Shown one piece after another: positions 569 through 56,538 of a stretch of 64,000 nt of DNA. The notes under the pieces were generated by a model, which saw nothing but the letters and a program-made list of their open reading frames with translations, made no database searches and was not told the origin of the DNA. Each line of letters starts with the position of its first letter. The first letter of the stretch is position 1. Both the position numbers and the translations under genes were made by a program. The DNA comes from Octopus vulgaris. Its lineage: Eukaryota. The DNA is taken from assembly GCA_951406725.2 (NCBI GenBank), contig OX597817.1, positions 98,208,001-98,272,000 on the forward strand. Direction: 5' to 3'.

Positions 569-1792
569 CTAGGCAATTATGGAGTGACTTTTAGGGCTTA
601 TAAATCTAGTATTTTTCTATCCTTCCTTAATACCGGTTCCCATATGTTGCACATATCTGCACTTGGTCTACTTAGGAGGTTGTTGTGTCCTAGCATATGT
701 CCTGCTTCTTTTAGTTTTCGTATTTTTCAGTGGTGTCTATTATTTTAATTTCATCCCATAGGGGGAGGTGGTCTCCATTTTTCCATACATGATCAGCTAT
801 ACCCAATTTATCAATATCTCCTTGTGTCACAGCATTGTGATGTTCGTCTAACCTTATTTTGAGGGGGCAGCATGTTTCACCTTTCTATAACCTACCACAG
901 CTTGCATGGGATGGAGTACACACAGTCTTTGGTGGTTTTACTCGAAGGAGATATTTGTGAAGTGTCCTGATGTCATATGGGCCGCATATCTTTTGTATCT
1001 TTACGGAGAGGCCTTTCACATAGGCTAGGCAGACTGTGGACTGTTTATTGGCCTCATCCTCTTGCTTCTTCATAATTGGAGTGGATAGTATACTTTTGGG
1101 GTAGTTGTTGCTTAACAGATCGTTATTGAGCTTGATCATTTCTTCGTGGTATATATCACAATCGCTACTTATATTCTTTGCCTGATGTTTTAGGCCCTGA
1201 GCCATCCTTCTCTTTACACTGTATGGATGGTGGGAATTTAAGTTGAAGTATTGTTCAGTAAAGGTCGGCTTGCAGCATATGGATGTCCTGAATTCATACT
1301 TGGTGCGTGTTATTAATACGTCCAGGAATGCTAGCTGATTGTCTGTTTCCTTTTCCATTGTGAACTGTATGGATGGCTTTATTGAGTTCACATGATCTAA
1401 CAGCACTTGGATATCTTCCTGGTGGGACCAGAGTATATAGATGTCATCAACTTATCGTAGCTGTAGTGTGAATGATGAAGAGGACAACAGAAAAGGAGAA
1501 AGAAAATATAATTAGGTCTTACCTCGGCGAAGATTAGTCTACCAAACTCAGCGAAGATCAGATCTCTCTCAACAAAGTCAATGCATCTCATCGCTTCCTT
1601 GTCTCAGCTCCAACTGCCCTGGCTTCGTTGATGCCACACGTGTGTCGTCGCTCACCGCTTCTGCTTCCTGCTGTGCATGCGCCCTGCAAGCCCTACTTCT
1701 GCCCTCCCCTATCTGTCGTCTTCTCCACCGACACCCCCCCCTGATCTACAGATCACTGAACCGGCTTTCTCACTCGCTCCCCGCTCCCAAAC

Positions 1793-3301
1793 TCACACTT
1801 TAACTTGTTTCATAATCAGCCAACCAGGGAGGAGGGTGCCGTTCCCTCTGTGGTCGCAGTGCAACCCTAGGACTGGTTCCTGGTATGTTGCTGCTGGCCT
1901 CATCATCCTGTCTACTGGTGTTGTTTTCATCTTGCCCACTGCTGCTGGCCCCATCCTCTGAGGCATGGACAATCCTCCATATATCCAAAACGTGGCGTGG
2001 CATACCATCGACCGAGATGTTATTCTTTGAATTTACAGAGGTTATTGTCCCCTTTCCTCATTGTGGTGTACACCGTGCGTTTGGGGGTTTTACCCAAACT
2101 TCTTCCCCGACTATGCCCCGGGTAACATTGATGCAGTACACGGATGCCTCCACTCGTACCTGAATATTGCCCTGTGTGGCACCGACTCCTCAGCCTGTCC
2201 TGATCTGGGCGACATATTGTACTAAAATACAGCCTTGATTGGTGAAATGTGACCCCTCTCTGACATGGCCTTGATGGTACAATGATGCCTTTCCACCACC
2301 CCATTTCCACTTGGCCGGTATGCCGCCCTGAAGAAGCGGTTGACCTTCCACCCATCAAGCATTTCTTTCAGCACATCCAAGCGAAATGCAGTGCCATTAT
2401 CCAGAAGCAGTTCATCCACGGAGCCTCGTTCCAGGAATATCTCATTCAACACTTTCACAATTTCTTCTGCGGTCCCCGTCTTCATCTCCCTTCATATGGC
2501 CAACCGCCCCGGTCCGCAGTCAACCATTGAGAGGTATGTCTCCTGCCGGTAGTGTGTTATGTCCACCGCCAGTCGTTTCCAGTCATGGTCCACTGGAATA
2601 CTTCCCGCTTCATGTATGCCCGGAGCAGGGTCGATGGACTGGCACCTGTCACAGCTGCTAACCACTCTCTGCATGCTCTGTCTTGTTACATCGGAGTCAA
2701 CTTTTCTGGCTAGGAACAATGTCCTGTCCACACCCATGTGATGCATGGTATGCAGTCTCCGCAACTCCGAGTCGCTCAGACGGCATACTGCAGCTACAGC
2801 CTGCTTCACATCCTCTGGCACCTGCAACCAGACTCGCTTTACCCTTCTCAGCTTCAGATTGAACTCAGTGGTTAGTTCACGCAGTATTCCCAATTGACGC
2901 TTTACCAGCATCTCTGCAGCCCCTTTGGTCCACACCCTCCGCTCATTGGTGATGACTGCTGTCACCCAGCCAAGTACAGTGGCCGAATCAGTCCTGGTTT
3001 CTATGGTGTGCAACTCCCACTTCAAGGCCAGGTTCACCCCCTTCAACACGGCATCCAACTCCGCCACATTGATGTGATTGCAGTCATCCGTCTTCCTGAG
3101 CCAGGCTGCATCTTCCACCATGACACCTCCCACTTCTAAGACAACCCCTGTTGCAATGCTACTGGCGTCACACCATACAATCCCGCTCTTTGATTTGGGA
3201 GCATACCAGCTGCCCCTCACTGGGTCCTCTGCTCCTATTCTGACCAAGACTTCCTGCATCATGTCGATCGTCTTCTCCCCCACTCTATCATTCCACTTCA
3301 C
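1793..3301 (-). pseudogene. Gypsy-like RNase H and integrase, broken frames
   Basis: RNase H: WCDASS, HINVAELDAV, TDSATV. Integrase: HHMG..CDRC zinc finger, LAVDITHY, LLLDNGTAF, PSGNGVVERHH. Confidence 0.9.
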
Positions 3302-4555
3302 TCCTTCGGCTCAACTCTTGATGAAGCTACATGCTGTCCGGAGCCAACCTGCAATCGGGTAGTGTCCCACCAGCTTCCCACACACAGAGAACAGTTCCCA
3401 TCTACTCATGCTGGCGCCCAGTTCAGGGACATCATTCCCTCGCCGGAACACCAATGCGCCGGCCTTGTCTCTCTATAGCTTGAGGCCCAGTGCAGCACCT
3501 CCCTCCATTGCCTCTGGTGGCTTGGCAATCAGTCCCAAACTCTTTAGGTGGCCTATGACCTCCGTTGCTGGTATCACGGTTTCATCCACCAGAATGTCAT
3601 CGATGTACGAATTGGTGGCCCTTTTTACTCTGTCCACCTTTCCCAGGATGGCCTTGAGAATTGTTGCCATAATCTTTGGCGCTGAATTCAGCCCGAACCT
3701 CAATCTGGTCAGACAGTACGTCCGGCCCTTATACCTGACAAGCTGGTACTTCCACAATTTCTCAGCCACATGCACCTGTAGGTATGCCGACTTCAAATCA
3801 ACAATCGTGGAGGCCCCTGTCATCTGCCTCCACTCTCGCAAGGTGTCTCCGCAGACATCCGTGGCTTCACCGCCTGTATGACACGATACGTGGTCATTCA
3901 GCTCTCGGAAGTCAAGCACTGGCCTGACCTTATGCTTTGTGGGCTGTATCACCGCCATCAGTGGCAGGACTCCGCTCTCTTCTTTTTCCCAAGGGATCAA
4001 TATGCCCTCCTTAATCCACCACTCCACCTCCCCCTCGAACTCACTTCTGGCATCTCATTTTAGAGTATGCTGATAGCAGCCCACTTCATTCTTTAACATT
4101 GGGGGCTCTCCCTTCCAGTGCCACTCCACTGTCCACCTCTTGCCATCAAAGACAGCCCGAAAATCCTGGTCTTCAATGGTGTGCACAGCATGCTGTTCCT
4201 CACGGTTGTCACCGGTGCATGGTCTCGCCCTACACGGTTTCCCCGCTAACCCAAATGTTACACCAGCCTCGTTAATGGTGACATCTCCCAAGCGGGTGAT
4301 TGCATCCATCCCCATCACCATGTCGATCTCGTCCACCAAGTGACCAACCACAATCACTCGCAGCGTAAGCTGTAGTCCCTGCACCACAATCCGCGCATCT
4401 GTAACCCCTTCGCAGTGTACTTCTCTTCCGTCGACAGCTCTAACACTGCTTCCTCCACTCCACGTCTCTGCCACTTCTGTAGTCATCAGGGTTGTTGTAC
4501 AGCCCATGTCCACAAGGGCTCGCGACATCTTCCCCTCCACCAGAATGTCGACCAC
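3302..4555 (-). pseudogene. Gypsy-like aspartic protease and reverse transcriptase, broken frames
   Basis: ALVDMGC (degenerate DTG), VRPVLDFRELN, VDLKSAYLQ, FGLNSAP, SYIDDIL. Confidence 0.9.
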
Positions 4556-4599
4556 AGGTAGCGACGATAAGCGCGCCTCTACTTATCCGAAGGGACAAC

Positions 4600-5338
4600 T
4601 ACCGGCGCAGTAGTCTCCCACAGCTGTTTCCCCGCAGACACTCGCTGGCCATATGCCCCGGCTCTCGACACCAGTAGCAAATCACCTCAGGCTTGGGCGA
4701 CACGCAGTCACACACCATGTGTGACCTTGGCACCGGAAACACTGTCTTTTGAACGGTCGCACATGTTCTTTCTTTAGCCCCTCTCCGCTGCTCCTAGCTG
4801 GGCCACTTTTCGATGATGCAGTCGCTGCTACCAACGTCATCCTACTGCATGAAACTAGTACGCGTGCCCGAGATATGATGTCCGCCATCGGCATCGAATG
4901 CACATTCGGAAGCTGCTGTAGCTCGACCGACATGTTGTCGGGAAAGCCAGTCACGAACACCAACCTAACCGTCTGGTCCAGCGACTCTCCCTCGTAACCC
5001 GCCAGTTTAGCCAATCTCCTAAGTTCATTGGCAAACACGTCCACCTGTTGCCCAGTCCATCTTGTTCTACCCAGGCGAGCATATGCCTCGAACATTCCCT
5101 CCGCAAAGGCCTCCATCAACCGGACTTCCACTTTCACCGCCCTGAGTTGGTCTGTCTCTTCCATCTCTAAATACAACGCCAACACCGGACCATCCAAGTA
5201 CAGCGGCATGAAGCTCGCCAGGTCACCTATACCATGGAGCTTTGTCACCAACTTTACTTTCTTCAGCCAAGCGACTACATCCGTGTCGCTGCAAAACGGT
5301 TTCATAATTTCGTGCGAAATATGGGCACTCATCATCAT
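4600..5338 (-). pseudogene. Short gag with C-terminal CCHC knuckle remnants
   Basis: 218-aa ORF just after the PBS. CFRC..H near its end and a frameshifted CYWCREPGHMASEC at about 4637-4680. Confidence 0.8.
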
Positions 5339-6872
5339 TTTTATTTATAAAACCGTGTGAGAATTGTTTTTGTTTATACGCCGAAATAGCTTGTAGTGTG
5401 AATGATGAAGAGGACAACAGAAAAGGAGAAAGGAAATATAATTAGGTCTTACCTCGGCGAAGATTAGTCTACCAAACTCAGCGAAGATCAGATCTCTCCC
5501 AACAAAGTCAATGCGTCTCGTCGTTTCCTTGTCTCAGCTTCATTGATGCCACACGTGCGTCGTCGCTCACCGCTTCCGCTTCCTGCCGCGCATGCGCCCT
5601 GCAAGCCCTACTTCCGCCCTCCCCTATCTGTCGTCCTCTCCACCGACACCACAATAGCCATAGTATTGGTTTTAGTGGTGTTGATCCTAAAGCGAAATTC
5701 TCAAAGTATTCCATGCATATATTGGCTATTACCGGTGATAATGGCGAACCCATAGCTAAACCCTCCTCTTGTTGATATATATCAGTGTCCATACTAAAGT
5801 AGGTAGTTTCTAGACAGAAGGTCAACATTTCCACCAAGTTTCTTATTGATATACTAGTGCGTTCTTTTAGATAGGTGTCTATCACTAGTTTTTCTTGTAT
5901 CACCGGTAATGCTTCACCAGCTGGGACTTTGGTGAACAGGCTTATCACATCTAGACTCACCATCTGGTTGGATTCAATAGGAGTATCCTTGATCAATTCT
6001 GTGAAGTGGGTGGAATTCTTCACGTATGATGTTGACTTTCCTGCTAATGGGCTGATTATATCCACAAGGAAGCTGCTCAGTGGATGACATTCTGAACCTC
6101 TACAGCTCACTATAGGTCTTAATGGAATACCATCCTTGTGAATCTTAGGAAGACTGTACATGTGTGGTAGTTTACTGTGATGTTGAGTCAGCTGTCTGTA
6201 TTTCATTGGTGTAAAGTGATCCTTGTTCTTGATCAAGATCTGTGACAACTTCCTCTCTGTTTTCAAAGTAGGGTCTTTCTTTACTTTGCTGTAGCTACCA
6301 TCACTTATAAGACTTGCCAACCTTTCAGTGGACCTTTGTCTAAAACCCTCAATAGAAAACATATTGAATGCTTATATGAATATATATATATGTTTGTGTA
6401 TAATATATAAAAAGAAAAATACGAACTATTGAAAAAATCTTCCCTTCTCAACACATGTAATATGTATGTACCTATGGGTATGTTTGTAAGTAAATATTTA
6501 TGTATGTATGTATGCATATACATTTATGTATGTATATGTATATATATTTATGTATTCCTCATTTATATACCTTTTCATTCCTACATAACTACAATAATCT
6601 TAGTATATATTTTTTTTATATTCCACTATTATTTCTCTTTTGATAACTTTCTCCTTCCTCTGTATATACTTTATCTAATAAGAATAATATAATACACCGA
6701 ATAATAATAATAATTGATTCCTTGGTATGCATATACATATACATATGAATATATAAATATAGAAATATATGTACAAGTGTTTATGTATGTTCATGCGTAT
6801 GTATTTGTATGTACAAGTGTGTATATGTGTATGTATTTGTATTTATAACTTAACCTTATGAACTTTCTAAAT

Positions 6873-17050: not shown

Positions 17051-18207
17051 GTAATTCCTCCTAATGTTTTTGTTTTATATTTGGTGTCTAGATGTAATTT
17101 TTGTTTTTACATTTGGTACCTAGATGTAAAGGTTTTTCTTAGCTCACTGCTGGTGCTTTGTGAGTGTCTTTTGACTTTGTCTCTCTAATGAAATTTCTTA
17201 CAGTCACTGACCCCTACCCCACCCCACACTCAATGTGAGCAATATATAGTTATGGAGAAAAAGTGAGAGACAGTGTGGTAAAGAAGGATCTTTTCTGTTG
17301 CTATTGCAGATTTTATGTGATTTTGTGATTCTCATATTCCAGAAAAAATCTTTTTTAATGTTACAGAGGTATGAAATTAGATAATTCTTACCCAATCAGT
17401 ATTTAGAAGCTAGCATTTTCTGCATTATATCACAAAATTAAAATAAAATACAATGAGGAAGTTTTAAACAAAATGATAGCAATTACATGTCATATGAAGA
17501 GAGAGAAAGAGAGGGGGGAGCAGCACGCATGAGAGTTATACATATACAGAGAGAGAGAAGGGGGAGGGAGAGAGTGATAAAGAGTGTGGTAAATATATAG
17601 AGAGGGGTGAGACAGAGTGAGCTAGACAGACAGATAGTGAGTGATAGATTTGATGATCTAAAAGCTGAGTTATTTCACATAGAAAATATTTTTTGATCAA
17701 TCATAACCAAAAATCTTGTTGCAGATTAAAAAAAAAAAAGAATCTGATTTTCTCAAAGAAACACTGTTTCAGAGTCTTGCTGCAACATATTCACAGACAT
17801 ACACAGTCATTTATATAGTAGATATAAATGTATTTTTTCTTCACATAAATTCTATACGTGGCATATGTTACTCCGTATATGGCTTATTTGTCGTTGTTGG
17901 CAAGAACTTGTTTCCGAGTATTTAGTACATTTCAATTGGTGGGTGGAGTCTCATTTGTGCTGTAGGGGGTAATGGGCTTTCTGATGGCTAATAAACCCAA
18001 TTCTTGCTCTAAATAGCCTATTGCAAAAATCTCTTTGAATTGTAGGTGCTGGTTGAGGTTGGGTTGCTCTGTCTTTTGTATGCTGTCATTTCTTTCTGAT
18101 ACCTGTTCTTCTGTTTTCTTCAAAATGAGATGTTCCTGCCTTGGTCAAATTATGCCAATGAGTGCATTGGTTGGTTATCATTTTCCAGGAATTTTGTTCA
18201 ATACCAG

Positions 18208-21200
18208 TGTCGAAGGCAGGAAAATAAAGTCAGGTTGTTCAATTGTTAACATGTGTTATCATGACCTCTCTTCACCATGCCTTGCTTCTATCACTGACAG
18301 CATGAAAAAAGAGGGAAACTTTTCTTCTCATTTGCCGACGTGATGTTATCTCTCCCCACTTCCAGTCTTCCTTTCACCACACGTCCCCTTGATCTAAAGA
18401 TCACTGCTCTCTTGTTCTGATTTGTAATCATCCACCCACCTGGGGAGGAGCTACACTCCGTTTGTGATCTCTGTAAGGACACTGGGCTGTCTTCCCTCTC
18501 CCCTTAATCATCGGAAGAGCTAATCACCCTTTGAATATCCAGGACATGACACAGCATTCCGTTCACTGATACATTATTCGGAGTACTTTCCTTTTTCCCA
18601 CTGTGTTGTGCACTGAGTATTCGGGGGCTTTACCCACACTTTGTCTCCAACCTGCACAGATGTAATCCCTTCCACTTCTAGCTGCTGTGACACCATGCTC
18701 AAAAGTCTCCATTTGTACTGGAATATGGCCCTGTGTGGGACTGACTCTTCAGCTTACTCTACCCCAGGTGACATGTTGTACCAGAAGATTGCCTCCATAG
18801 GGGAGATTTATCCCCTCTCAGCCATGGCTTTAATCATATGGTGGTGCTGTTCCACAATCCCATTTCCACCTGGTCTGTGTGTAACTCTGAAGAAGCATCT
18901 TGTGCTTCACCTTTTTGAGAATCTCTCTCAGCTGCTCTGAGTGAAAAACTACTGTTGTCCATCAATAGCTCATCTACAGGCCTCCTTTCCAGGAACACCG
19001 CATTTAACACTTTTGCGATTTTGGCAGCAGTCTCCACCCTAATTTCTCTCCATATAGCCATTCACCCTAGTTCAAAGTCAACTATTGAAAGGTACACCTT
19101 TCTCTGATAGTGTGTATCATCAAAGGCTAGCCCCTTCCAGTCTTCCTCTACCTGAATCTTTCCTGGTTCATGTGTGTTTGGGACAGGATTGATTGATTGG
19201 CACCTGTTGCAATTCCCCACTATCCTCTGAACACTCTCTCTCTGATGACACCGGGTTTGATTGTCCTGTCAACCCCATGTGATGCATGTTGTGCAGCTTC
19301 CTTAGTTCTGTGCCCTCCAGCCAACAAACTGCTGCTTCCCCACTTGGAATATCCTCTACTGCTTCCAACCAATGCACAGACACCACATGCAACTCCAGGT
19401 CGAACTTGGCAGCTAGCTCCCTCAGAATTTCCAAGCGATGCTTAATCATCATTTCTGTGGCCCCTTTCATGCAAATCCTCTTCTGATTAGTGATCACAGA
19501 TTCCAGCCACCTTCCCGTGCACTGTGGCATAATTAGTCCAGATCTCAACAGTTTGCAATCCCCATCTCAATGCTAGGTCAAAGTCCTTCAATACAGAATC
19601 CATTTCAGCTAATTTGATGTGGTTGTGTCATCCTTCTTCCGAAGTTATGCTGTGTCTTCTACCTCAACACCTCCTATTTTCAGCATAATTCCCAATGCTG
19701 TGATGCTTGTCACACCACATAATCCCTTTCTTTGTATCAGGCATGTACCAGCTTCCTTTCACTGGATCTTCCACTTTCACTCTCTCCAAGACCTCTTGCA
19801 TCATCACCATCATCTTCTCTCCCACTACCCACTACATGCTGTTCAGAGCCATCCTGCTACAGGGTAGTGACCCACCAACTTTCCATACATTGAAAACAGC
19901 TCTTGCCTATTCATATTCTGATTTAGGTCTGGGATCTTGTTTCCTCTGCGAAACACAAGCCTATCCACTTTGTCTCTTTCAAGCCTGAGCCCCAGCACTG
20001 TACCTTCTTCTATAGCCTGTATTGGTTTTGTTGTCAACCTAAACCTCCTAAGATGGTCTATGATTTCCTCTGCTGATGCCACATTCCCATCTACCAGGAT
20101 ATCATCAATATATGAGATGGTAGCCTGCTCCACTTTGGCTTCTTTGCCCAAAACTGCCTTGAGGACCTTCACCATGATCTTTGGTGCTGAACTGAAGCCA
20201 AAGCCCAGTCGAGTCAGGTAGTATGTTCTATCCCTGTACCTCACTAGTTGGTACTTCCACAACCTCTGTGATACATAGAGCTGCAGATTGGCCATCTTGA
20301 AGTCAAAGATCATAGTTGCATCCCTCCTCATTCGCCTGCACTCACAAAGGGTTTCTCTACCTACATCTGCTGCCTCACCACCCATATGACAGGACACATA
20401 TTTGTTCAGTTCCCTGAAGTCTAGCACTGGTCGAACCTTATTCTTTGTTGGCTGAACCACAGTCATCAATGGCAGCACACTGCCTGTTGTCTCCTCACTC
20501 CATGGCATCAGAATGCCCTCCTCTATCCACCTGCTCACTTCTGTCTGAAACTCAAACCAGGCTTTTCCTTTCAGGGTATGCTCATAACAGCTCACCCTGT
20601 TTCTCAGTACGGGAGGTTCTCCTTTCAAGAAGTTCTCCACTGTCTGTCTTTTGCCATTGAACTCAGCATGGAAGACCTCATCTTCAACTGCGACTATGAA
20701 AGACCATTTCTGTACCAGTAATCCGTCACTCCTACAGTCTTCTTCCTCCACTCCACACTCACAGTACGCAGTACACCAGTCACCAAACTCTACTCCTGCC
20801 CCATCAACTGTCACACCGCCCAATCATGTAATCACGTCCATTCTGACCACTACGTCAATGCTGTTCACCACCTCATCAACTACAATCACCTGCAGCCCCA
20901 ACATGGACCCCATGTATCTCCATTTCCATGTCCCTGACGCCCCTAAATTTGACCTCCCTACCATATACCGTCCTGAGCCCGGTGTTTCCTCTCCAGCTCT
21001 CAACCATTCATGTGGTCACCAGGGTTGATGTGCAACCCATATCCATGAGGGCTCATACTTCTCTTGTCCCCACCATAAGCTTCACTTCAGGCAATGTTTG
21101 GTGGGGTGCCTTCAATTGGTTGTGGAGGGAACTAGCAACACAGTAGTCCCCCTTTGTCCATTTCCCCGTTTGCAGTTATTTGTTATGTGCCCAGGGTGGC

Positions 21201-22178
21201 TGCATGAGAAACACACCACCATTGGTTTTGGTTCCAGGCATTCCCTGACAATGTGTGGAACTCAATATCTGAAACATGGGCCCTTGGCTGTTTGCCTCAC
21301 CAGACTGTTGCTGTTGTTTGCTGCCTGCCCCTTTGTCCTGCTTGTATCCACCATGACTGTTATTGTTACATCGTGAATGTCGCTTTGTGACAACACCCAT
21401 GAGAGATCATCTCTCCTACTGACATCGTTTCAATGTCTGGCACCTGCTGCAGATGTACAGAGAGATGGTCAGGGAAGCCAGTCACAAAAGCCAGTTTCAC
21501 CATCCGCTCCATTGCTGTTGTAGTAAATGCTGCTAGGCCCACCAACCACTCATGTAATTGTCTATTTGCTCGCTGGTCCATCTCATTCTCCTGAGGTTGC
21601 TGTATGCTTTAAAAGCTCCCTCTGTGCATGTGTCCTTCAGCCGCTCTTCAATTTTTTCTGCTTTTTCTTCGTCTGCCTCATCCATCTCCAGGTAATGATT
21701 CAGCACACTGCCTTCAGTGACATAAAGCTAGCCATGTCTTCTATTCCCTGCAACTTTGCCACGAGTCTCACCTTCTTTATGCAGGCCACCACATTGCCTT
21801 CCCCAGTGAATGGTCTCAATACATCACTACTGATTCTAATTTTTGTGGCTATTGCAAAAAAGAAAAAGATAAATAAATGAGGAAGAACAAGAGCAACAGA
21901 AAAATATTTTAAAATTCACTTCTCGGACATATCCACACAGCTAAAAACAATATGCCAAAATAGCTTGTGGTTTGAAGGCATAAAAATAAAGTTGTTCTTA
22001 CTTCAACTTGCAATTGGGTACTGCTAGCAGATTGTTAAATTGTTAACATTTGTTGTCATGACCTCTCTTTGCCACGTCTCACCTCTATTGCTGACAGCAT
22101 GAAAAAAGAGGGAAACTTTTCTTCTCACTTGCCAGTGTGACGTCATCTCTCGCCACTTCAAGTCTTCCTCCCACCACA
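18208..22178 (-). mobile_element. Gypsy-like LTR retrotransposon 2: same lineage as element 1, different LTR, more decayed
   Basis: LTRs at 18208-18381 and 21966-22178. Perfect TSD ACCAG (18203-18207, 22179-22183). PPT-like gatcaagggg. RT ORF 19843-20823 with VRPVLDFRELN and SYIDDIL. Confidence 0.93.
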
Positions 22179-22497
22179 ACCAGCACTCTTCAGCATTTCC
22201 TTCAATAGGTCTTTGTAGCATTGCAAGGGGCATTCATGAGGACCTGTCCTATTGTTCAGTTCCCCAAATAGGCATATCTTTAGGACTCTGTTATCTCCTA
22301 TGCAAGCCATGTGGCCTACCTATTTGAGGTGGTACTTGATGATTGTAGCTTCCATGCTAATTTGTTATGCTCTCTTTAGTATGTCAATGTTGGTAACATA
22401 GTATTCCCTTTTGATGTCCAAGATCAACTGAAGTTTCTTTTGATGAAAATATTCAAGCTTTTTCAGGTCATGTCGGTACAGGGTCTATGCCTAATAC

Positions 22498-24508
22498 TGT
22501 AGCATGTCTGTACTAGCTTAGTTTAAAATATACATTTTTAATTTCTGGTAGGCTCAGAAAACACTATAAATTTACAGCTCTATTCAGTCTGTGATTGGCC
22601 GAATAAACAGGCTCCCTCTAACAGATGCTCTCTACTACATCCAATTGTCACTTATATAATGTGGTGGTGGCCATGTTTAATTGAGTTCCATTCACTTTGT
22701 TTCTCTGAAGGACTCCTGGCTTGTAGTTTAGTTCTATCACGTTTGTGCTGACATCTCACATACAAGAACAAGCCTTCTTCCATGTGCGCAAGCAGTATCG
22801 ACCAAACTCAATGCCGCCAACTCTCCATGCTTACTAGAAATATTTTATCAAGTCTCTTTCTATATACACAAAGTACAACTAATGTATTCATGCATTCATT
22901 CGCTCTATAGATATCTCTATAAAACACCACTTACTTCTTTACAGAAATATTATACAAGGCATTTTACATTGTATGTAACCCACTGCTACAATAAACTTTA
23001 TAATCTTAAAAGTCAAATTGTTGTGGTATATCACTGTACAGCCATCTAACAGCTATTGAATGAACACACAAACACAGTGACCAACTCCCTAGACTGGTGA
23101 CAACATGACTACATTGGTGACCTCAGAACTTATTATTCATATTGCAATCTTTATTACTAAAGTGGTCACTACTTTAGTGATGGGTATCACCAGTCTAGTG
23201 AGTTGGTTACTTGTATGGTGAGTTCACTATCTTCATAGCTAATGTGTAGCTATAGCGCAATGGAGTGTTCACAGTCTGGTTGAAGTGATAACATCGGTGG
23301 TAGTAGCTTGGTCAACACCAAATTTTTTACTTGTTGGAACTTCTCTCTTTTGTCGTCATCTTCATGGCTTGATTCACTTTGCTAGTTTCTTGCATTGTCA
23401 CTTCTGTGAGATTTTGCCTGGCTTCTATTAGTCACTGTCGTTTTTCTAACACCTACAGCTTTTTCAGCCACTGCAAGCAAACACCACTTTTTGCAGGCTT
23501 GTATCTTTCCAACTGCAAGCGACTCACTGCTTTTGCAGGCAAATTCTTGACACTGCTCATTCTCACAGCAGCCAATATTTTTCTCGCGTGTATTTTTGCA
23601 TCCCATGATTTCCAGTTTGCTGGACATATGTCATCACGCTTGCACATCAAGTTTTGCTAGCTACGTGAATTTGTTCATCTCTCTTGGAGCTTTAGACTTT
23701 CGTAAGACTTATTCAGAGGTCTGGCAGCATTATGAAAGTTCTTTTGCACTCTTGTGCATTACTCACTTGAAGCTTGGTGCTCTCATGCTTATTTATTTAT
23801 CCTTCCTTCCATGCTACATTACTTTCATTTGTATTATTCATCTCCTGGTTTATTCTCTGGGGGTGGTTCTGTAGCATATTTGTACTAGTTTAGTTTAAAA
23901 CATACATTTTTAATTTCAGGTAGGCTCAGATGACACTGTAAGTTTACAGCTCTATTCAGTCTGTGATTGGTCGAATAAACAGGCTCCCTCTAACAGGTGC
24001 TCTCCACTATGTCCAATTGTCACTTATATAATGTGGTGGTGGCCATGTTTAATTGAGTTCCTTTCACTTCGTTTCTCTGAAGGACTCCCGGCTTGTAGTT
24101 TGGTTCTATCACGTTTGTGCTGACATCTCACACACAAGAACAAGCCTTCTTCCATGTGCGCTAGCAGAATCGACCAAACTCAATGCCGTCAACTCTCCAT
24201 GCTTACTAGAAATATTTTATCAAGTCAACCTTTCTATATACACAAAGTACAACTAATGTCTTCATGCATTCATTCACACTATAGACATCTCTATAAAACA
24301 CCACTTACTTCATTACAGAAATCTTATACAAGGCATTTTACAATAAACTTTATAATCTTAAAAGTCAAATTGTTGTGGTATATCACTGTACAGCCACCTA
24401 AAAGCTATTGAACAAACACACAGACACACTGACCAACTCCCTAGACTGGTGACATCACTACATTGGTGACCTCAGAACCTTATATTCATATAGCAATCTT
24501 TGTTGCTA
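22498..24508 (+). mobile_element. Non-autonomous LTR retroelement (LTRs of about 650 bp, about 700 bp non-coding interior)
   Basis: Direct repeats 22498-~23160 and 23870-~24508 begin TGTAGCA and end T(G/A)CTA. G-rich PPT-like tract just before LTR2. TSD AATAC (22493-22497, 24509-24513). Removing the element restores the RTE frame. Confidence 0.8.
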
Positions 24509-27841: not shown

Positions 27842-27893
<52 letters not shown>

Positions 27894-28411
27894 AAAAAAT
27901 GAAGTTCGAAAATGCTGCTGTATTATACAATTTTTAATTTTTATATATACATTATAACATGTTTCAGTTCCTGAAATGAACCTTATCAAAAAAAGTTATA
28001 TATAAAAAAAGACAGCTCATGCCGTCAAACACAAGAAATTCATTTATAATACACAACGGAGTCAGACATCTTAGAGTTCATGTATAGTTGATATATAGTT
28101 CATGTATAGTTGATATATAGTTTGAAGTATATGTTCAAAGTGTTCGATGTAGTGGCCCACGGTGGCGATACGTATTCAATACAAAAAACAGATCAAAGTG
28201 GTGGAAAGCGGTCAATACAGAAGATTGATGTTTCCGAAAGAGCGAGGAATTCATTTTCACCTTAAGCAATTGTGATGACCCATGGTGGAAGTTCGCTGGG
28301 TGGTTCTAGTGAGTTTTTGTGAAGTGCTCGGTTTTATAATGCCTGTTAGGTGGTCAATCCAGCGTAGCGTGACGTCATCATCGTTTTGACCAATCGTTTC
28401 GTTAGGTGGCT

Positions 28412-28640
28412 TTAGTCAAGTAGAACGGGACGTCATCATTATTTTGACCAATCGCTGCATTATAACTGCCTCTTGTTTGTTTCCTGTTTTGACCAGTCGC
28501 TTCGTTAGTCAAGTAGAACGGGATGTCATCATTATTTTGACCAATCGCTGCATTATAACTGCCTCTTGTTTGTTTCCTGTTTTGACCAGTCGCTTCGTTA
28601 GTCAAGCAGAACGGGACGTCATCCAGATTCTGCCCAATCA
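28412..28640. repeat. 93-bp tandem repeat (about 2.4 copies) in the Penelope 3' UTR
   Basis: ttagtcaag(t/c)agaacggg recurs at 28412, 28505 and 28598. Confidence 0.9.
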
Positions 28641-28964
28641 CGACTTATAGCTACATTAGATCTGCCCCCTGTCTGTACTTGTTAGGTGACTAGTCAAGCA
28701 GAAAAGGACGTCATCAATATTCTGACTAATGACTGTCCCCTGTTTGTATCCTGTCCATTCTAGCAGAGCTAGACGTCATCAACTTGTTGATCAATCAGAA
28801 TCGGGTCTGACCCTTAGCTGTATCGTATGTATCAGGGTCAGATTTGCATGAAAGAATTTTTTTCCTTTTTTACTAAGGCATATTTCCGTCAGAGTGAGTG
28901 TCTGCTTGAAGTAGCGGCCGTGGTGGAATTTTGCTTCTCCTTTTCGGAGGACTTATCTTTTGTT

Positions 28965-31262
28965 TTAGTATTCCTGGCCCAGGGTGTTTAAACTTGGTCT
29001 AAATTTTTTTATGAAATATAGTTCTTTATTTTGGCGTTGTGTGAAGGTTGCGTTGTCACTGAATTTATAGAGTGGGTTAGTTGTAAATTTCGGATTTACA
29101 TTTCCAGCACATCTATCTATGTGTCCGCTGACCGGTATTTTGCGGTAATCAGGGTTTCTAATTTGTGATTTATGCACCACCATCCTGTTACGTAAGCTAT
29201 TTTTTGTATGGCCTATATACTGCCTATTGCAGCCTGCGCATGTTGTGACGTAAATTAAGTTTTCTGATGCGCAGGTGAAGTTTGTTCTAATGGTGAACTG
29301 GTGGCCTTGTTCCAGTATAAATTCTGATCCTTCTTTCAAGATGACACAGATTCCGCAGTTGGGCCTTCCACATTTTCTAACTGCTGGTTTTGTGGTTGAT
29401 GTTGAGTGCAGTGTAGCTTGGGTTAAAATCCTTTTCAAGGATTTTGGTTGCCGTTTACTTTTAATGATGGTGTGTGTTTCGAGGATCCAGTTCATCTTTG
29501 GGTCTCCCTTTAGTAGGGCTGTGCTTTGTAGTATGGTGTTGAAGGCCTCATTGTTGAGTGGGTTGTGTGTAGAGATGTAGGGAAGGGTTTTTAATTGTTC
29601 TTTCTTTTTTGGTTTTGTTTGTCTGAGGTCTTCTATACTTAATTTAAGTACCCGTTGGATTGCACTGTCTATTAGGGGCTGTGGATAGTTTCTATTTGTG
29701 AGTGTGGTTCTAAGTTCCTGGAGACGTGTGTGTCGGGTGTTTGTGTCTGATATTATGGTGCAAATCCTTCTAGCTAAACAAAAAGGGACATTCATTCTAG
29801 TGTGTCGTGGGTGGCATGAATCAAAGGGTAGGTACTGTTTAGAGTCAGTCGGTTTATAGTAGATATCTGTCTCTATTTTGTTGCCGGTTTTCTTAATGAG
29901 GATGTCTAAAAATGGTAATTCTTTTTCGTTGTGGTCCATCGTGAATTGTATATTGTCATTTATTCCATTTAATAGTATTTTAAATTCCTCAAGTTTCTCT
30001 ATGCCTTTGTCCCAGATGATGAAACAGTCATCGAGGTATCTTTTCCAGTTGTTATGGATATAGGTGGCGAAGGTGTTTCCATATTTCTCGAGTGTCATCC
30101 GGTATAGTATTTTCTCGAGGTATCCCATCACTAGGTTGGCAAAAGATGGTGCAGTACGCGTGCCCATCGCTGTTCCCGATCTTTGCCTGTAGAAATCATT
30201 GTCAAAAATAAAATAATTGTTCTCTAAAATGAATCTAAGTCCTTCTATTATAAGGTCTTTGTTTATGCGAGTTGGGAGTTCAAAGGGGTAGTTATTCAGC
30301 CAGAAGGTGATCGCTTCTATTCCTAGGTTGTGAGGGATGTTAGAATAAAGATTAACTACGTCGAATGATACTAGAAGGGTTTTCTCATTGACTGTTTTAG
30401 GGAGGTGGTTGAGCATATCTATATCGTCTCTTACGTAGCTTTTGATGTGTTTTAGGAAAGGTTTAAGAAGTGTGTCTAAGAAATTGCTGAGGCGGTGAGT
30501 TTCACATGCTGGCCCTGCTATTATCGGTCTTAGTTTAAGATCATTTGGTGAAGGGATTTTGATGAGTGTGTCGGTGGATGTTTTGCACGTTTCTCTAATG
30601 GTTTGGCTTTTGTGTACCTTAGGGATACCATAGAACAAACTCGATTTGCATTTGAAGTTAGTGATGTATTCATACTCCTTGTTCGTGAGTCCTTCTTGGT
30701 ATGTGTTGATTAATGTCCTAAGGTTATGCATTATTTTTTGCTGGTTATACTGTTGGGCCCTTTCATAATATGTTTCATCTCTTAATAGGGATAGCACTAA
30801 ATTTTTATAATCGTTTGTATTCATTATTACTATCGCGTTGCCCTTATCTGCCTCCTTAATTGTTATTGTTTTGTCTTCTCTTAGTTTGATGAGGTCGTTC
30901 CATTCTCTTTTGTTGAAGTTAGGGCTGTGTTTTTGTTTCTTGATGAATTGAAACGGGAAATTAGTTATGTAGTCACAATAGCGGTCTAAGGCTTTATTCT
31001 TACCTTTGGTGGGGGTGTAATTGCTCTTGTTTCTAGCTATTGAGTCCTCCTCTATTTGTTTGTTTTGAAATGCCTCGGTGAGTCTTAGTTTTCTGCAAAA
31101 TTCCGAAATATCATCTTTCATTTCATAGTAATTAGAACGTTGTGGGGTGGGTGTAAATTTAAGTCCTTTGGAGAGTATGCTTATTTCGTTAGGTGTAAGT
31201 TCTTTGTTTGAGAGATTAATTATCTTAATTACCTGAGGTTTCTTTTGTTTGTCCTTTGCCAT
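28965..31262 (-). CDS. Penelope-like reverse transcriptase + GIY-YIG endonuclease (765 aa)
   Basis: NLS..L...E..LSKGLKF, ADKG, IPKVHK, LRPII, FDVVNLY, GTAMG, RYLDD, linker CGRPNCGIC, NLIYVTTCAGCNRQYIGHT. Confidence 0.95.
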   Translation of the reverse strand: MAKDKQKKPQVIKIINLSNKELTPNEISILSKGLKFTPTPQRSNYYEMKDDISEFCRKLRLTEAFQNKQIEEDSIARNKSNYTPTKGKNKALDRYCDYITNFPFQFIKKQKHSPNFNKREWNDLIKLREDKTITIKEADKGNAIVIMNTNDYKNLVLSLLRDETYYERAQQYNQQKIMHNLRTLINTYQEGLTNKEYEYITNFKCKSSLFYGIPKVHKSQTIRETCKTSTDTLIKIPSPNDLKLRPIIAGPACETHRLSNFLDTLLKPFLKHIKSYVRDDIDMLNHLPKTVNEKTLLVSFDVVNLYSNIPHNLGIEAITFWLNNYPFELPTRINKDLIIEGLRFILENNYFIFDNDFYRQRSGTAMGTRTAPSFANLVMGYLEKILYRMTLEKYGNTFATYIHNNWKRYLDDCFIIWDKGIEKLEEFKILLNGINDNIQFTMDHNEKELPFLDILIKKTGNKIETDIYYKPTDSKQYLPFDSCHPRHTRMNVPFCLARRICTIISDTNTRHTRLQELRTTLTNRNYPQPLIDSAIQRVLKLSIEDLRQTKPKKKEQLKTLPYISTHNPLNNEAFNTILQSTALLKGDPKMNWILETHTIIKSKRQPKSLKRILTQATLHSTSTTKPAVRKCGRPNCGICVILKEGSEFILEQGHQFTIRTNFTCASENLIYVTTCAGCNRQYIGHTKNSLRNRMVVHKSQIRNPDYRKIPVSGHIDRCAGNVNPKFTTNPLYKFSDNATFTQRQNKELYFIKKFRPSLNTLGQEY

Positions 31263-31329
31263 CGTGTGTCCCTGTTCCTGTGTGTGGGGTCTAAAAAATG
31301 GTTGGTGTAGTTATGTTCAAAGCTATTAT

Positions 31330-32622
31330 TTATCTGTTGTTATAACTGTCAGAGTGAGTTTGTGGTGCTCTGTTCTGGAGTCTGTTGTTGAACCTAGTGT
31401 TCCGTCTTAGTTCCTCAGGTATATTGTGTTGGTAGTTGTTTCCTCTGTAGTGCATTTGTTGTTTGTTATGGTTGTATGGTTGGTTCCTGGGGTGGATGTT
31501 TGGTAGTAGCGTTTTGGTTTGGTTATGTGGGTTGTATTTTATAGTATTGTATGTTGTGGCTCTTAGGTTCGTGGAATGGTGTGGTGGGACCCTATAAGTG
31601 TTTTGGGGTTGGTGTAGGTAGTGTGGGGTGCGTTTTAAATGCATTTTTCTGGTGTAGAGTGTGTTTGGATTTCTTGGTGGTTGTTCTGCTCTGTTGGTAT
31701 GTCTATTTTCGAACTGGTGTGGTGGGCCTCTGTAGGTGTTTTGGGGTTGGTGTAGGTAGTGTGGGGTGTGTTTTAGGTGTACTTTTCTGGTGTAGAGTGT
31801 GGTAGGATTTCTTGGTGGTTGTTCCGTTCTGTTGGTATTTGGTTTTGATTTGCTTAATTTTATGAAGGGGTTGTTGGATATGTGTTCATTTTTGAAGTTG
31901 GTTTCATAATCTAGAAACCAGATGGCGCTCTTTTCCCATCGTTGGAGGGACTTAAGTTCCTCTTTTTCACATTCTTCATTCCATAGTGCTGGTAATGTTT
32001 CAGTATTGTTGTCGTCTATTAGTTTGATGACTTCTTCGTTGATTTCCTCGTCTATGGTTTTTACTTTTTCTTCATTCGTTTTAGCTCTCAGCTTAAGTAG
32101 TTCTATTTCCATCTTCATTTTTTCTAATGACATTTTTTCTCTAAGTTTTCTTTGTTCTTCTGGTTCTTCCAAGATGGGTTTGATTTGTAATTTACGGGGT
32201 ATGACTAGGGGTGTTGAGTGTAGCCATTTTTGGTAAATCTCTGCTTTATTCTGATTTTGTATCATTTTCCAAAAAGCGAATTTTCTGTTTCGCTGTAGTG
32301 TTCTCCATTGGGGGAGGACTTGGTTCTTTGTTTGTAATGTTGAAATTGCTCGGTTCTTCTCATGTGTTCCTTCTTTTTGTTGCTCTTGTTTCGTAAAGTT
32401 TGTGAAGAATGTCGTCATTGTATCGCATAGATTTTCAACTTTCTCGAATATTTCGGAGGGTGTTTTATTCGATTCGGTTTCCTCGTTAGTTTGTGTAGAA
32501 GGTCGAGGTGTTAAGTTGAGTTTGTTTAACACTGCTGTTAGGTTTGAATTTATGCTTTTCAATTCTTTCAGTATCTCTTCATTTATTGAGGAGATGTCGT
32601 TGGTGTCTTTTTTAGCAGGCAT
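31330..32622 (-). CDS. Penelope-like element ORF1 (430 aa), charged helical N-terminus and Pro/His/Asn/Arg-rich C-terminus
   Basis: Long open frame between the 5' pLTR and the RT ORF. E/K-rich heptad-like stretches and a duplicated 46-aa unit. Confidence 0.8.
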   Translation of the reverse strand: MPAKKDTNDISSINEEILKELKSINSNLTAVLNKLNLTPRPSTQTNEETESNKTPSEIFEKVENLCDTMTTFFTNFTKQEQQKEGTHEKNRAISTLQTKNQVLPQWRTLQRNRKFAFWKMIQNQNKAEIYQKWLHSTPLVIPRKLQIKPILEEPEEQRKLREKMSLEKMKMEIELLKLRAKTNEEKVKTIDEEINEEVIKLIDDNNTETLPALWNEECEKEELKSLQRWEKSAIWFLDYETNFKNEHISNNPFIKLSKSKPNTNRTEQPPRNPTTLYTRKVHLKHTPHYLHQPQNTYRGPPHQFENRHTNRAEQPPRNPNTLYTRKMHLKRTPHYLHQPQNTYRVPPHHSTNLRATTYNTIKYNPHNQTKTLLPNIHPRNQPYNHNKQQMHYRGNNYQHNIPEELRRNTRFNNRLQNRAPQTHSDSYNNR

Positions 32623-33272
32623 TTTCGGGAGCTCGTACGTGATATGATATTTATAATAGGATTAGCTCGTATACGAGTAGGTATATATTTGTAAAAAATG
32701 AAGTTCGAAAATGCTGCTGTATTATACAATTTTTAATTTTTATATATACATTATAACATGTTTCAGTTCCTGAAATGAACCTTATCAAAAAAAGTTATAT
32801 ATAAAAAAAGACAGCTCATGCCGTCAAATACAAGAAATTCATTTATAATACACAACGGAGTCAGACATCTTAGAGTTCATGTATAGTTGATATATAGTTC
32901 ATGTATAGTTGATATATAGTTTGAAGTATATGTTCAAAGTGTTCGATGTAGTGGCCCACGGTGGCGATACGTATTCAATACAAAAAACAGATCAAAGTGG
33001 TGGAAAGCGGTCAATACAGAAGATTGATGTTTCCGAAAGAGCGAGGAATTCATTTTTACCGTAAGCAATTGTGATGACCCATGGTGGAAGTTCGCTGGGT
33101 GGTTCTAGTGAGTTTTTGTGAAGTGCTCGGTTTTATAATGCCTGTTAGGTGGTCAATCCAGCGTAGCGTGACGTCATCATCGTTTTGACCAATCGTTTCG
33201 TTAGGTGGCTTTAGTCAAGTAGAACGGGACGTCATCATTATTTTGACCAATCGCTGCATTATAACTGCCTCT

Positions 33273-33314
<42 letters not shown>

Positions 33315-49290: not shown

Positions 49291-49934
49291 TGTTAGTGGA
49301 ACATCAGTGAGATAAGTGGAAAAGTTAAATATCTCTAGGCTATATTCATGAGTGATGGAAAGGAGGATGCTAGAATTGCAGATACTAGCACAGTAATGTG
49401 CCAGGTCCAGCATTTGATCCCCAGAATCTTCAATTTGGTTTTCATGCCTATCCTTACATATAGATATGAATGTTAAGTAATAACTGAAAGAACAAGATCA
49501 TGAAAACAAGTAGCTGAAATGGGATTCTTCCAAAGGATCTTGGGAGTAATGTTACTTAAATGGCTGTGTAACTTGGAGATGAGGGAGTCTTTTCAGGTTG
49601 AGCCACTACTTCTCCACATTGAGAGAGCACAGCTCTGTTACTATGGGCATCAGATTAGAATGTTGAAGGAAAGAATTAGAGATGGATTCTTCAAGCTGAG
49701 CCAATTGGTAGGAGACAAAGTAGACAAAGAACAAACTGGTTGGATAATATCCATAGTTTCAGTTGGTTGTGTTTAGGAATCCAACCAGAAAGTTTAATGA
49801 TGGTCGTGCTTGATAGGATTCAATGGCGGAGGTGTCTGAGGACTTGACTACCCACAGCCCTTCCTAGACTAGTGGGCAGAGAAGATGAATGCATAGTTGG
49901 GGTTTTGTAAAGAAAGAGCAGACAAATATATTTT

Positions 49935-51930
49935 ATAATGTCTATAGCCCAGGCTTCTTTGTCTGCTCTTTCTTTTTCATGGAAGAGTTGCAGACTTTTT
50001 TCAACTTCCAGCAGTTGTATTTTCAGGCGGGACTGTTCACTGCTTTCAAATTGTTTGTTTAGGTGATTTGAAACTTTTGTACGCCGTTTCATAAGAATTT
50101 TCCTCTCCCTGGAGATTTTGTTCTTGTGTACAGTGGCTTTTCTCTCCAGCATGCATTTGCAGCAGATGGCTTGCATTACAGACATGAATTGTTGAAGTTT
50201 CATCTCAATGTTCGGTGAGGATAGACATTTAGGCCAGTTTTGTTTGAGGATCTCTTTCTCAATTTGTTTCCAGTTTGCCTTATGGAAGTTCAAGCTGGAA
50301 AGATTTGGAGAGTTTCTTGTAGGCTGCATGTCCATGCTTTCCTTTGGTCTGTACATGGTCAGCTCTACTATGTTGTGATCTGAGAGTAGCATCAGCGTTA
50401 CTTTCACTTTATGGATGAGATCCATATTATTTGTGAAGCAGAGATCCAGTATGTTACCTACCATGGTTGGGTGGAGTACTATTTGCTCCATGTACAAAAT
50501 TTTGATGAGGTTCAGGAGGGACTTCACCTGTTCTTGTTTGCATCGTGTCATTCCTGGGAGAGAAAGGTCTTCAGGCCATCTGACATTGGACAGATTGAAG
50601 TCTCCCATAAGAAGTACACTTATGTGTTGTTCTAATATGACGAGAACTTCTATTTTTGTAAGGCAGTCTTCAAACTTGCCTACATGGCTTGGAGCATCTG
50701 GAGGGCGATATGTAGCACATAAAATTACACCGAGTTGCCTTATATGTACAATTAGTGTGTCACATACTGAATTTGAGTGTAACAAAAGGACCTGGGGTGT
50801 GAGGTCCTCACGGATGTACATAGCAACTCCACCATGACTCCTTTCTTTCCTGTCGGTCCGCAATACAACATACTGTGGTATGTGTATTTCTGCATTTGCT
50901 ATATCTGGTTTCAGGTGTGTTTCTGTAAGTGCTATGCATAAGGCTTGATTGCATGCAACAAGGTCACTCAAGAAAGGGATTTTTGTCCTGTTACTGAGTG
51001 TTAGCAGTCCTCTGATGTTCAGTAGGAGCATCGAGGTGATGTGTATGTTGTTGCCAGTGGTGTCCACCTTGGATCTATTTGCTGTGGCGGTCTTGTGTAT
51101 TGTGGATAGTCCCATCTGCGAGTTTGAGTTTGATGGAGCCAGGTTAGCTGCTGTACAATCTTTTGTGCCATGCACCAAAAAGATTCTTGTTCAGCAGCTG
51201 CCCTTTCAATAACATGTTGATGGTTTGTAACACGCACTACATCTGTGTACCTCTGTTTTGGCGCAGGTGGTGCATAGTCCTTTCCTTTTCCTTTTGGCAG
51301 GTGGTTTCTGCCCTGTTTCATGTTTATGTGGCGGGGTCTTTGGTGTGCAAAACAGCAACCGCACCTTCCTCTCCATACCAGCAGACACCTTTCAGGTATA
51401 ATTTGCACATTCGTTTATGCTGTCTCTTTTTATCCTTTTTGTTATATGGATAGTCAGGTTTGCTTCTTTCCTTGGCTGTTTCATCTTTTGTTTTTGTTTT
51501 TCCTTCTTTTAGTTCTTTATTGGCTCTTTCATCTCCATGGTTTTGACTTTTGATGCTGGTAGGGGCACTTGCACTTGGGTTTACTTTCCAGGCAGGTTTC
51601 TCACTTGAATCTTCTTTGTTTTCTTGAGTGTCTACCAAGTGGGGGTGACATCTTTCATCTGCTTCCATGCCTCCATCCTTGTCATCTTTACTTTGTTCAT
51701 TATCAAAGATGGCATCAAGAGTGCTGATACGGGATCATATGAGAGCATAGGAGTGTATAATCTCCTGCTTCTTTCGTTCTATCTGAGCTAATGTTCTGGT
51801 GCAACCATTGCTCTTCAGCGCAGCTGTGATTATGTTGTTTGGGTTATCTCCTTCAGCACAGTACCAGGCTCTCAAAAACAATGCCAATTCCATGCTCCTC
51901 CAGGTTCTGGACATTTTTCTGGATATTTTA
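49935..51930 (-). mobile_element. CR1/L2-group LINE 5' half: ORF1 remnant with Cys/His fingers + ORF2 AP endonuclease
   Basis: ORF 49820-51178 has NIRG, ALTETHL, GGVA, YRPP, GDFN, LDL and SDH. Upstream CKLYLKGVC...C.FAH CCCH-like motif. Confidence 0.9.
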
Positions 51931-56410: not shown

Positions 56411-56538
56411 TAAGGGTGTCTGAGAGACACCACCATGCCGAAATAGCAGTCAAATTCCTGACTCTAAAAACCACGTCGTTTTTAGAGTCAGGGATTTGAC
56501 TGCTATTTCGGAATGGTGGTGTCTCTCAGACACCCTTA
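56411..56538. repeat. Near-perfect palindrome with 61-bp arms
   Basis: 56411-56471 pairs with 56478-56538 and has few mismatches. Confidence 0.9.

Follow-up and report, generated by a model that had tools for sequence, protein, structure and literature searches.

A site complementary to tRNA nucleotides 1–12 at the LTR junction suggests a 5′ tRNA fragment as primer in a DUF7047-bearing lineage of retrotransposons

Two LTR retrotransposons in a 64-kb stretch of Octopus vulgaris DNA (positions 98,208,001 to 98,272,000 of contig OX597817.1, assembly GCA_951406725.2; hereafter the window) were found to carry a 12-nt site complementary to the 5′ end of tRNA-Phe(GAA) directly behind the 5′ LTR. Comparison with related elements indicated that the site is real and lineage-wide, and it is probably functional. 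Judging from the DNA sequence alone, we consider it likely that a 5′-terminal tRNA piece of approximately 12 nt primes minus-strand synthesis in these elements.

Both retrotransposons (elements 1 and 2; Table 1) are small, with a size of ca. 4 kb and LTRs of the TG…CA type, and both lie in the minus-strand orientation. The coding region of element 2 is broken, and its longest open piece (19843–20823) covers the RT and DUF7047. Element 1 was inserted in a Penelope-like RT gene, parts of which remain at 1068–1457 and 5700–6314. The closest named gag relative was that of Octopus sinensis (80%). The 3′ LTR of element 2 has an internal gap of ca. 35 nt and lacks ca. 5 nt at its outer end; therefore, the LTR pair alone cannot place the LTR edge. 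The edge was fixed at 21966 by contigs that derive from related copies: among the ends listed, loose ends fall at 21965/21966 in three of four runs, and the LTR edge at 21966 is thus real. Additionally, the leader was skipped in 5 of the 15 joints listed from these contigs, with rejoining at 21946–21953; notwithstanding their short sides, these joints fit a conserved site.

Table 1. Positions of the features of elements 1 and 2 in the window
Feature	Position	Strand	Remark
Element 2, candidate primer-binding site	21954..21965	(-)	11 Watson-Crick pairs and 1 G-U pair with tRNA-Phe(GAA) nt 1–12
Element 2, 5′ LTR	21966..22178	(-)	TG…CA; 3′ end abuts the primer-binding site
Element 2, 3′ LTR	18208..18381	(-)	85% identity over 151 nt
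Element 2, target-site duplication ACCAG	22179..22183	(.)	Partner at 18203–18207
Element 2, polypurine tract	18382–18389	(-)	Short; whole feature with hairpin 18382..18403
Element 2, 5-bp hairpin	18390–18403	(-)	Upstream of the polypurine tract on the RNA
Element 2, gag-protease-RT-RNase H-integrase	18500..21830	(-)	Broken; limits approximate
Element 1, candidate primer-binding site	5380..5391	(-)	12/12 complementary to tRNA-Phe(GAA) nt 1–12
Element 1, 5′ LTR	5392..5653	(-)	
Element 1, 3′ LTR	1462..1738	(-)	
Element 1, target duplication	1457–1461 and 5654–5658		4/5 matching
Element 1, hairpin	1742..1755	(-)	Ahead of the polypurine tract
Element 1, gag and interrupted pol	1800..5344	(-)	gag at 4682–5344

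The original prediction described an 11/12 match to the tRNA-Phe 5′ end flush against the LTR end TGTGG of element 2, and this arrangement was observed: the 12-mer GCCAAAATAGCT is followed by TGTGG from 21966. Element 1 carries a perfect copy, GCCGAAATAGCT, adjoining its own LTR. Because the elements lie on the minus strand, the complement of tRNA-Phe nt 1–12 follows the 5′ LTR on their RNA without a gap. The single mismatch of element 2, at 21957, falls in a CpG as had been claimed, and on the RNA the pairing remains as G-U. The CpG observed/expected ratio was 0.21 in element 2 (depleted) versus 0.64 in element 1, and a CpG-poor, old element 2 fits its one mismatch. The chance of a match of at least 11/12 at a fixed site is 1.4e-6. 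The motif count across the window (eight at up to two mismatches versus 2.6 expected) was weak on its own; it is the junction position that carries the weight. The 12-mer has no counterpart beside the 3′ LTRs. A tRNA gene search across the 64-kb window found none, and no special fold was detected around the site (z of 0.12 and −0.18). A reading of the site as a Pol III A-box was dropped by eye, as the match does not go beyond nt 12 and the remainder of the box is absent.

Element 2 had been regarded as an independent replicate of the site in a second family. The coding regions of the two elements aligned with 65% DNA identity over approximately 2 kb of pol and 49% protein identity over 1018 codons, values that speak for a diverged family and against an independent origin; the comparison indicates that elements 1 and 2 are two diverged families within one lineage. 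The further claim that LTRs and leaders do not align held for the leader, for which 32% of 500 shuffles were equally good, was borderline for the inner LTR (5.8% of 500 shuffles), and failed at the LTR end, where the final 6 nt are common to both elements. The LTR end together with the motif was matched by 0 of 500 shuffles. Conservation running on into the flanking leader, which the original prediction had held to count against function, was looked for, and the leaders do not align. Since the leader is unalignable, the inner LTR aligns barely if at all, and four-fold sites are identical at only 90 of 213 positions (42%), the 12-mer appears to be under selection. The preference for function over chance was thus upheld by a leader without conservation and by the recurrence of the site in families with 27%–53% gag identity to element 1.

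A search with the RT of element 2 retrieved 343 longer relatives, most of them with DUF7047, and the named RT relatives came from Argonauta, Oratosquilla, Petrolisthes and Aplysia. With a profile, 1330 representatives were retrieved at a cutoff of E 1e-30; this number includes pieces. Metagenomes were scanned with an 18-nt query consisting of the motif and the LTR end, and this motif-first scan identified 26 loci. Eight of them had the lineage gag 10–60 nt behind the motif in the correct orientation, and their LTRs were ca. 130–300 nt long and started with TG. Five of the eight are closely related: L005, L006 and L016 are nearly one family, and L007 and L011 stand at 72%–80% gag identity (three compared). 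The ninth locus (L025, 811–1365) is a non-coding, TRIM-like element of ca. 550 nt with two LTRs, whose primer site and polypurine tract are the same as in the gag-bearing relatives. The remaining 17 of the 26 loci, with neither lineage gag nor LTR structure, were taken as chance matches. The 18 conserved columns of the motif-first loci are conserved through the selection of the matches themselves.

Because the motif-first loci had been picked by the motif, samples picked by protein were sought. The junction was present in two of four protein-first loci (L027 and L029), each with a tRNA-matching variant and, in L027, with one change in the terminal CA of the LTR; L028 and L058 were without the junction. 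Protein-first scans of viral contigs and single-protein scans of genome contigs found no relative. Gene calls with a premature start run through the junction and translate it, and such read-through was evaluated in 134 proteins that include a gag start; at least 20 extra upstream residues were present in 16 of them (12 families). A four-residue word encoded by the site (KLFR, KLSR or SYFG) was held by 7 of the 12 families, against a background of 4 such words in 24,650 positions. A third-frame fit was found by eye in two more families (P0102 and P0386), and P0304 carries a tRNA-like variant; in P0081 and P0380, nothing of the site was seen (2 of the 12 families without a word). As the tRNA-like 5′ ends compatible with the P0304 variant belonged to viral tRNAs of several isotypes, no tRNA was named for it. 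This peptide evidence for the site is back-translated, and the DNA junctions found protein-first number two.

Over 11 elements, seven of which were motif-selected, column identity was 1.0 at tRNA positions 1–3 and 7–12 and 0.65–0.67 at positions 4–6. It dropped at once to ca. 0.25 past tRNA nt 1 and past the final 6 nt of the LTR, and the 30 columns behind the site were mostly at 0.2–0.4, with a maximum of 0.56. The profile indicates that conservation ends at tRNA nt 1. Together, these samples indicate that the trait runs through the DUF7047-bearing LTR lineage. The gag tree had no resolution at depth, and the order of switches among site variants was not readable from it.

ARAGORN was run on 58 fetched loci to name the 12-mers, so that the tRNAs used for matching come from contigs of other organisms and not from the hosts of the elements. 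All three 12-mers known at the DNA level were tRNA 5′ ends. The main type, GCCGAAATAGCT, was the 5′ end of Phe-GAA in eight rows, with one further row called Leu. For the L029 type, the site is the complement of GCCGTGATAGCT, which was Phe-GAA in 33 rows, many of them archaeal and some on small contigs resembling contaminants; for the L027 type, it is the complement of GCCCGGATAGCT, which was Lys-TTT in three rows. Because the search pattern was designed to catch the variants, these matches name them and do not measure rarity. The L027 and L029 sites differ from the main type at tRNA positions 4–6 only. The earlier designation as a tRNA-Phe 5′-end site was therefore borne out in both octopus elements, but not as a Phe-specific one, because the sites of relatives correspond to other tRNA 5′ ends; the matches indicate that relatives switch between tRNAs.

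The predicted duplex with tRNA-Phe nt 1–12 had a free energy of −20.7 kcal/mol for element 1 and −18.6 kcal/mol for element 2. Canonical priming by the tRNA 3′ end was rejected, as the site starts with AGC and not with TGG and pairing with the 3′-terminal 18 nt of tRNA-Phe reached only −7.3 and −10.5 kcal/mol. Priming by the anticodon arm of tRNA-Phe, as with half tRNAs, was likewise rejected, because the duplex with nt 25–45 was weak (−7.1 and −7.8 kcal/mol) and off register. Antiparallel pairing with the tRNA 5′ end sets nt 12 beside the terminal A of the LTR, which is the required place of the primer 3′-OH, and from this geometry we infer that the primer would be a cleaved 5′ tRNA piece. 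When the LTRs were searched for a complement of the site, the longest helices were 5–10 bp (G-U allowed) and none exceeded shuffles in 9/9 LTRs; no spliced complement was found in 9/9 LTRs either. Given LTRs without a complement of the site, direct or spliced, the primer would most simply be a tRNA fragment with its 3′ end close to nt 12.

In an intact folded tRNA, nt 1–7 and 10–13 are paired and leave no toehold, so that a 5′ half or a D-loop fragment would be likelier to enter. Such a fragment, a 5′ half or the product of a D-loop cut, could anneal to the site and then be shortened, by a cut or by trimming, to where the duplex ends, leaving a 3′-OH in the D-stem near nt 12 that faces U5. For this step we lean towards the RNase H of the element, in a Tf1-like manner (the Tf1 primer is 11 nt long), the choice between it and a host nuclease being close to even. 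The primer end could be nt 10 if the integrase later trims two bases. RT would extend the annealed tRNA piece, and plus-strand synthesis would copy the 12-nt primer up to its 5′ end. Copying to the end of the primer would explain both the border at G1 and the way in which the site follows the host tRNA. According to excerpts of one source, the site of retroviruses is copied from the primer when the plus strand is made, whereas Ty1 and Ty3 inherit it (PMC7472051). Fragments of tRNA 5′ ends are given as 13–26 nt in excerpts of another source (PMC10275265); 12 nt is below this range, and an extra final cut must therefore be assumed. We see the chances as evenly balanced for a proposal in which the whole, poorly classified lineage relies on a fourth kind of primer: the first 12 nt of a host tRNA would be freed by a cut in the D-stem, probably made in trans by the RNase H of the element, and the site would be recopied from them in each cycle.

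Several other readings of the site were considered. The site might be an anchor that binds an intact tRNA by its 5′ strand, serving packaging or the freeing of the 3′ strand, with the CCA end priming elsewhere. Pairing with nt 1–12 would free the 3′ acceptor strand, the LTR start TGTGGTG of elements 1 and 2 could pair over 5 nt with the CCA end, and the bipartite tRNA binding of Ty3 offers a precedent. However, the LTR start varies in relatives (TGTAGT, TGTGCT, TGTAAT, TGTAAC and TGTGTT), TGTGGTG is the usual inverted end, at which priming would skip the LTR, and the site stops exactly at U5, the required position of a primer 3′ end. We regard such anchoring as unlikely. Two further readings are self-priming, either of the Tf1 type or through an LTR splice junction, and an accidental likeness to a tRNA in what would be a protein-bound stretch that extends the integrase site. 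In their favour are the contiguity of the 12-mer with the conserved 6-nt LTR end and the fact that tRNA nt 8–12 are common to many tRNAs. Against them stand the short LTR helices and missing spliced matches described above, the absence of the 12-mer beside the 3′ LTRs, the three-base switches that fall on real tRNA ends, and a boundary that coincides with tRNA nt 1. These readings are already largely refuted and appear very unlikely.

The primer might instead be another small RNA with a tRNA-like 12-mer at its start or end, such as a tRNA-derived SINE transcript or a tRNA look-alike. This would be compatible with the sequence, but the RNA would need to be present in many unrelated hosts and to vary in step with tRNA isotypes, and we consider it highly improbable. 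For a neutral leftover of common ancestry, or chance, speaks that elements 1 and 2 are related in pol; yet the identity observed at four-fold sites corresponds to a probability of ca. 6e-4 for 11/12, the leader is unalignable, and the site is kept in families with 27%–53% gag identity. This last reading is hardly credible.

Apart from its putative primer, the lineage has the domain order PR-RT-RH-IN, is marked by DUF7047 between RT and RNase H, and shows TG…CA ends, YIDD in the RT, and a CX2CX4HX4C zinc knuckle. Target duplications are of 5 bp, matching at 5/5 positions in element 2, which they bound, and at 4/5 in element 1 and L011; none was found in L004 and L025. The gag-PR-RT-RH-IN order, which also occurs in BEL and retroviruses, the TG…CA ends and the zinc knuckle resemble those of Ty3/Gypsy (Metaviridae). 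The Pfam signature differs, being a strong RVT_1 and RT_RNaseH in Ty3/Gypsy and a weak RVT_1, no RT_RNaseH and DUF7047 instead in the present lineage. For ordinary Gypsy proteins of the same contig sets, the scores were 107–116 bits for RVT_1 (three of four; the fourth was partial) and E values of 1e-21 or better for RT_RNaseH (three of four), whereas the DUF7047 lineage gave 23–37 bits or less for RVT_1, and RT_RNaseH and RT_RNaseH_2 were detected in none of six lineage proteins, nor in L027. Against solved structures, the pol profile best matched retroviral integrases, and the RT matches were weak. A sister lineage (P0430, P0432, P0433, P0438 and P0442) has a DUF7047 RT-RNase H with a different, more ordinary integrase, which suggests an integrase exchange; one of its proteins reaches E 0.02 for Gypsy-type RNase H.

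Gypsy-Cigr (Cigr-1) is a possible label for the present lineage, the two being compared by description only; Cigr-1 elements are similar in size to the ca. 4-kb elements described here. For molluscs, Cigr-1 appears as a small clade in excerpts of PMC6238403. Troyka/Kuafuorterviruses, as excerpts of two papers describe them, are likewise a divergent lineage of mainly aquatic animals with the gag-PR-RT-RH-IN order and LTRs of 100–400 bp (PMC12440569, PMC11673190). In those excerpts they have CG…CG ends, 3-bp duplications, an xADD motif (IADD, VADD or LADD) and a longer zinc knuckle. Membership in Troyka/Kuafuorterviridae was therefore rejected, as the TG…CA ends, 5-bp duplications, YIDD and CX2CX4HX4C knuckle all disagree. 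The excerpts of the Troyka paper contain no mention of a PBS, a primer or a tRNA.

Excerpts of the plant-element survey of Neumann et al. distinguish three primer types, namely a whole tRNA, a half tRNA that results from cleavage in the anticodon stem, and a self-primer (PMC6317226), and name half-tRNA priming in copia lineages only, with which excerpts of Kojima's Helenus paper agree (PMC10886601). The primer of these half-tRNA Ty1/copia elements (Drosophila copia, yeast Ty5, plant Osser, Bryco and Bianca, and fungal Helenus) is, in the same excerpts, also a cleaved 5′ piece of a host tRNA (PMC6317226, PMC10886601). Their site is complementary to the anticodon arm, and cleavage takes place in the anticodon stem-loop, whereas in the present lineage the site pairs with nt 1–12 and a D-stem cut would apply; moreover, their integrase precedes the RT, in contrast to the Gypsy/BEL order PR-RT-RH-IN found here. 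Self-priming elements (Tf1, Tj1 and sushi) are alike in that an RNA pairs with the site through its extreme 5′ end and must be cut to give the 3′-OH, as described in excerpts of PMC4600332, where a title in the reference list refers to RNase H cleavage of an RNA duplex. Their primer is their own 5′ end, whereas here the partner would be a tRNA in trans and the LTR holds no complement.

Searches of the open-access literature in PubMed Central and bioRxiv gave no description of a site complementary to tRNA nt 1–12; subscription papers, Repbase and GyDB were beyond the scope of this search. If true, priming by tRNA nt 1–12 would be a fourth primer type besides whole tRNA, half tRNA and self-primer, and would bridge half-tRNA priming and the RNA cleavage of the Tf1 type. 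Short 5′ tRNA fragments would then gain a concrete job, as direct partners and possibly also as competitors of a retroelement. The proposal predicts cDNA joined to tRNA nt 10–12. Because PBS finders seek tRNA 3′ ends, this lineage would be missed by them, and the site could serve as a sequence tag for the LTR lineage in cephalopods, crustaceans and gastropods.

Several minor observations were made on these elements and their surroundings. A hairpin, TGATC and GATCA separated by 4 nt, lies directly before the polypurine tract in seven of the eight elements examined (elements 1 and 2, L004, L008, L011, L022, L025 and L027). It has a compensatory pair change in L022 and is kept in the non-coding L025, and a different 7-bp hairpin precedes the tract in L027. 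Its stability was not above that of shuffles; it may act as a signal in plus-strand priming, in packaging or in the formation of dimers. Many eukaryote-type retrotransposon contigs (L027, L028, L029 and L033–L058) were located in two bacterial genome bins, most likely through contamination. Within the window, one arm of a long inverted repeat at 56420–56534 has an 11/12 match to the motif, probably by chance, with no LTR context seen. A tandem duplication with a spacing of ca. 1370 nt and 93%–95% identity lies beside element 2 (22497–24457), and an endonuclease ORF of a LINE-type element was found at 49820–51190. A Penelope-type element (27883–33303) has an intact 781-aa RT and GIY-YIG ORF, an upstream 443-aa ORF and an identical direct repeat of 300 nt, and looks young.
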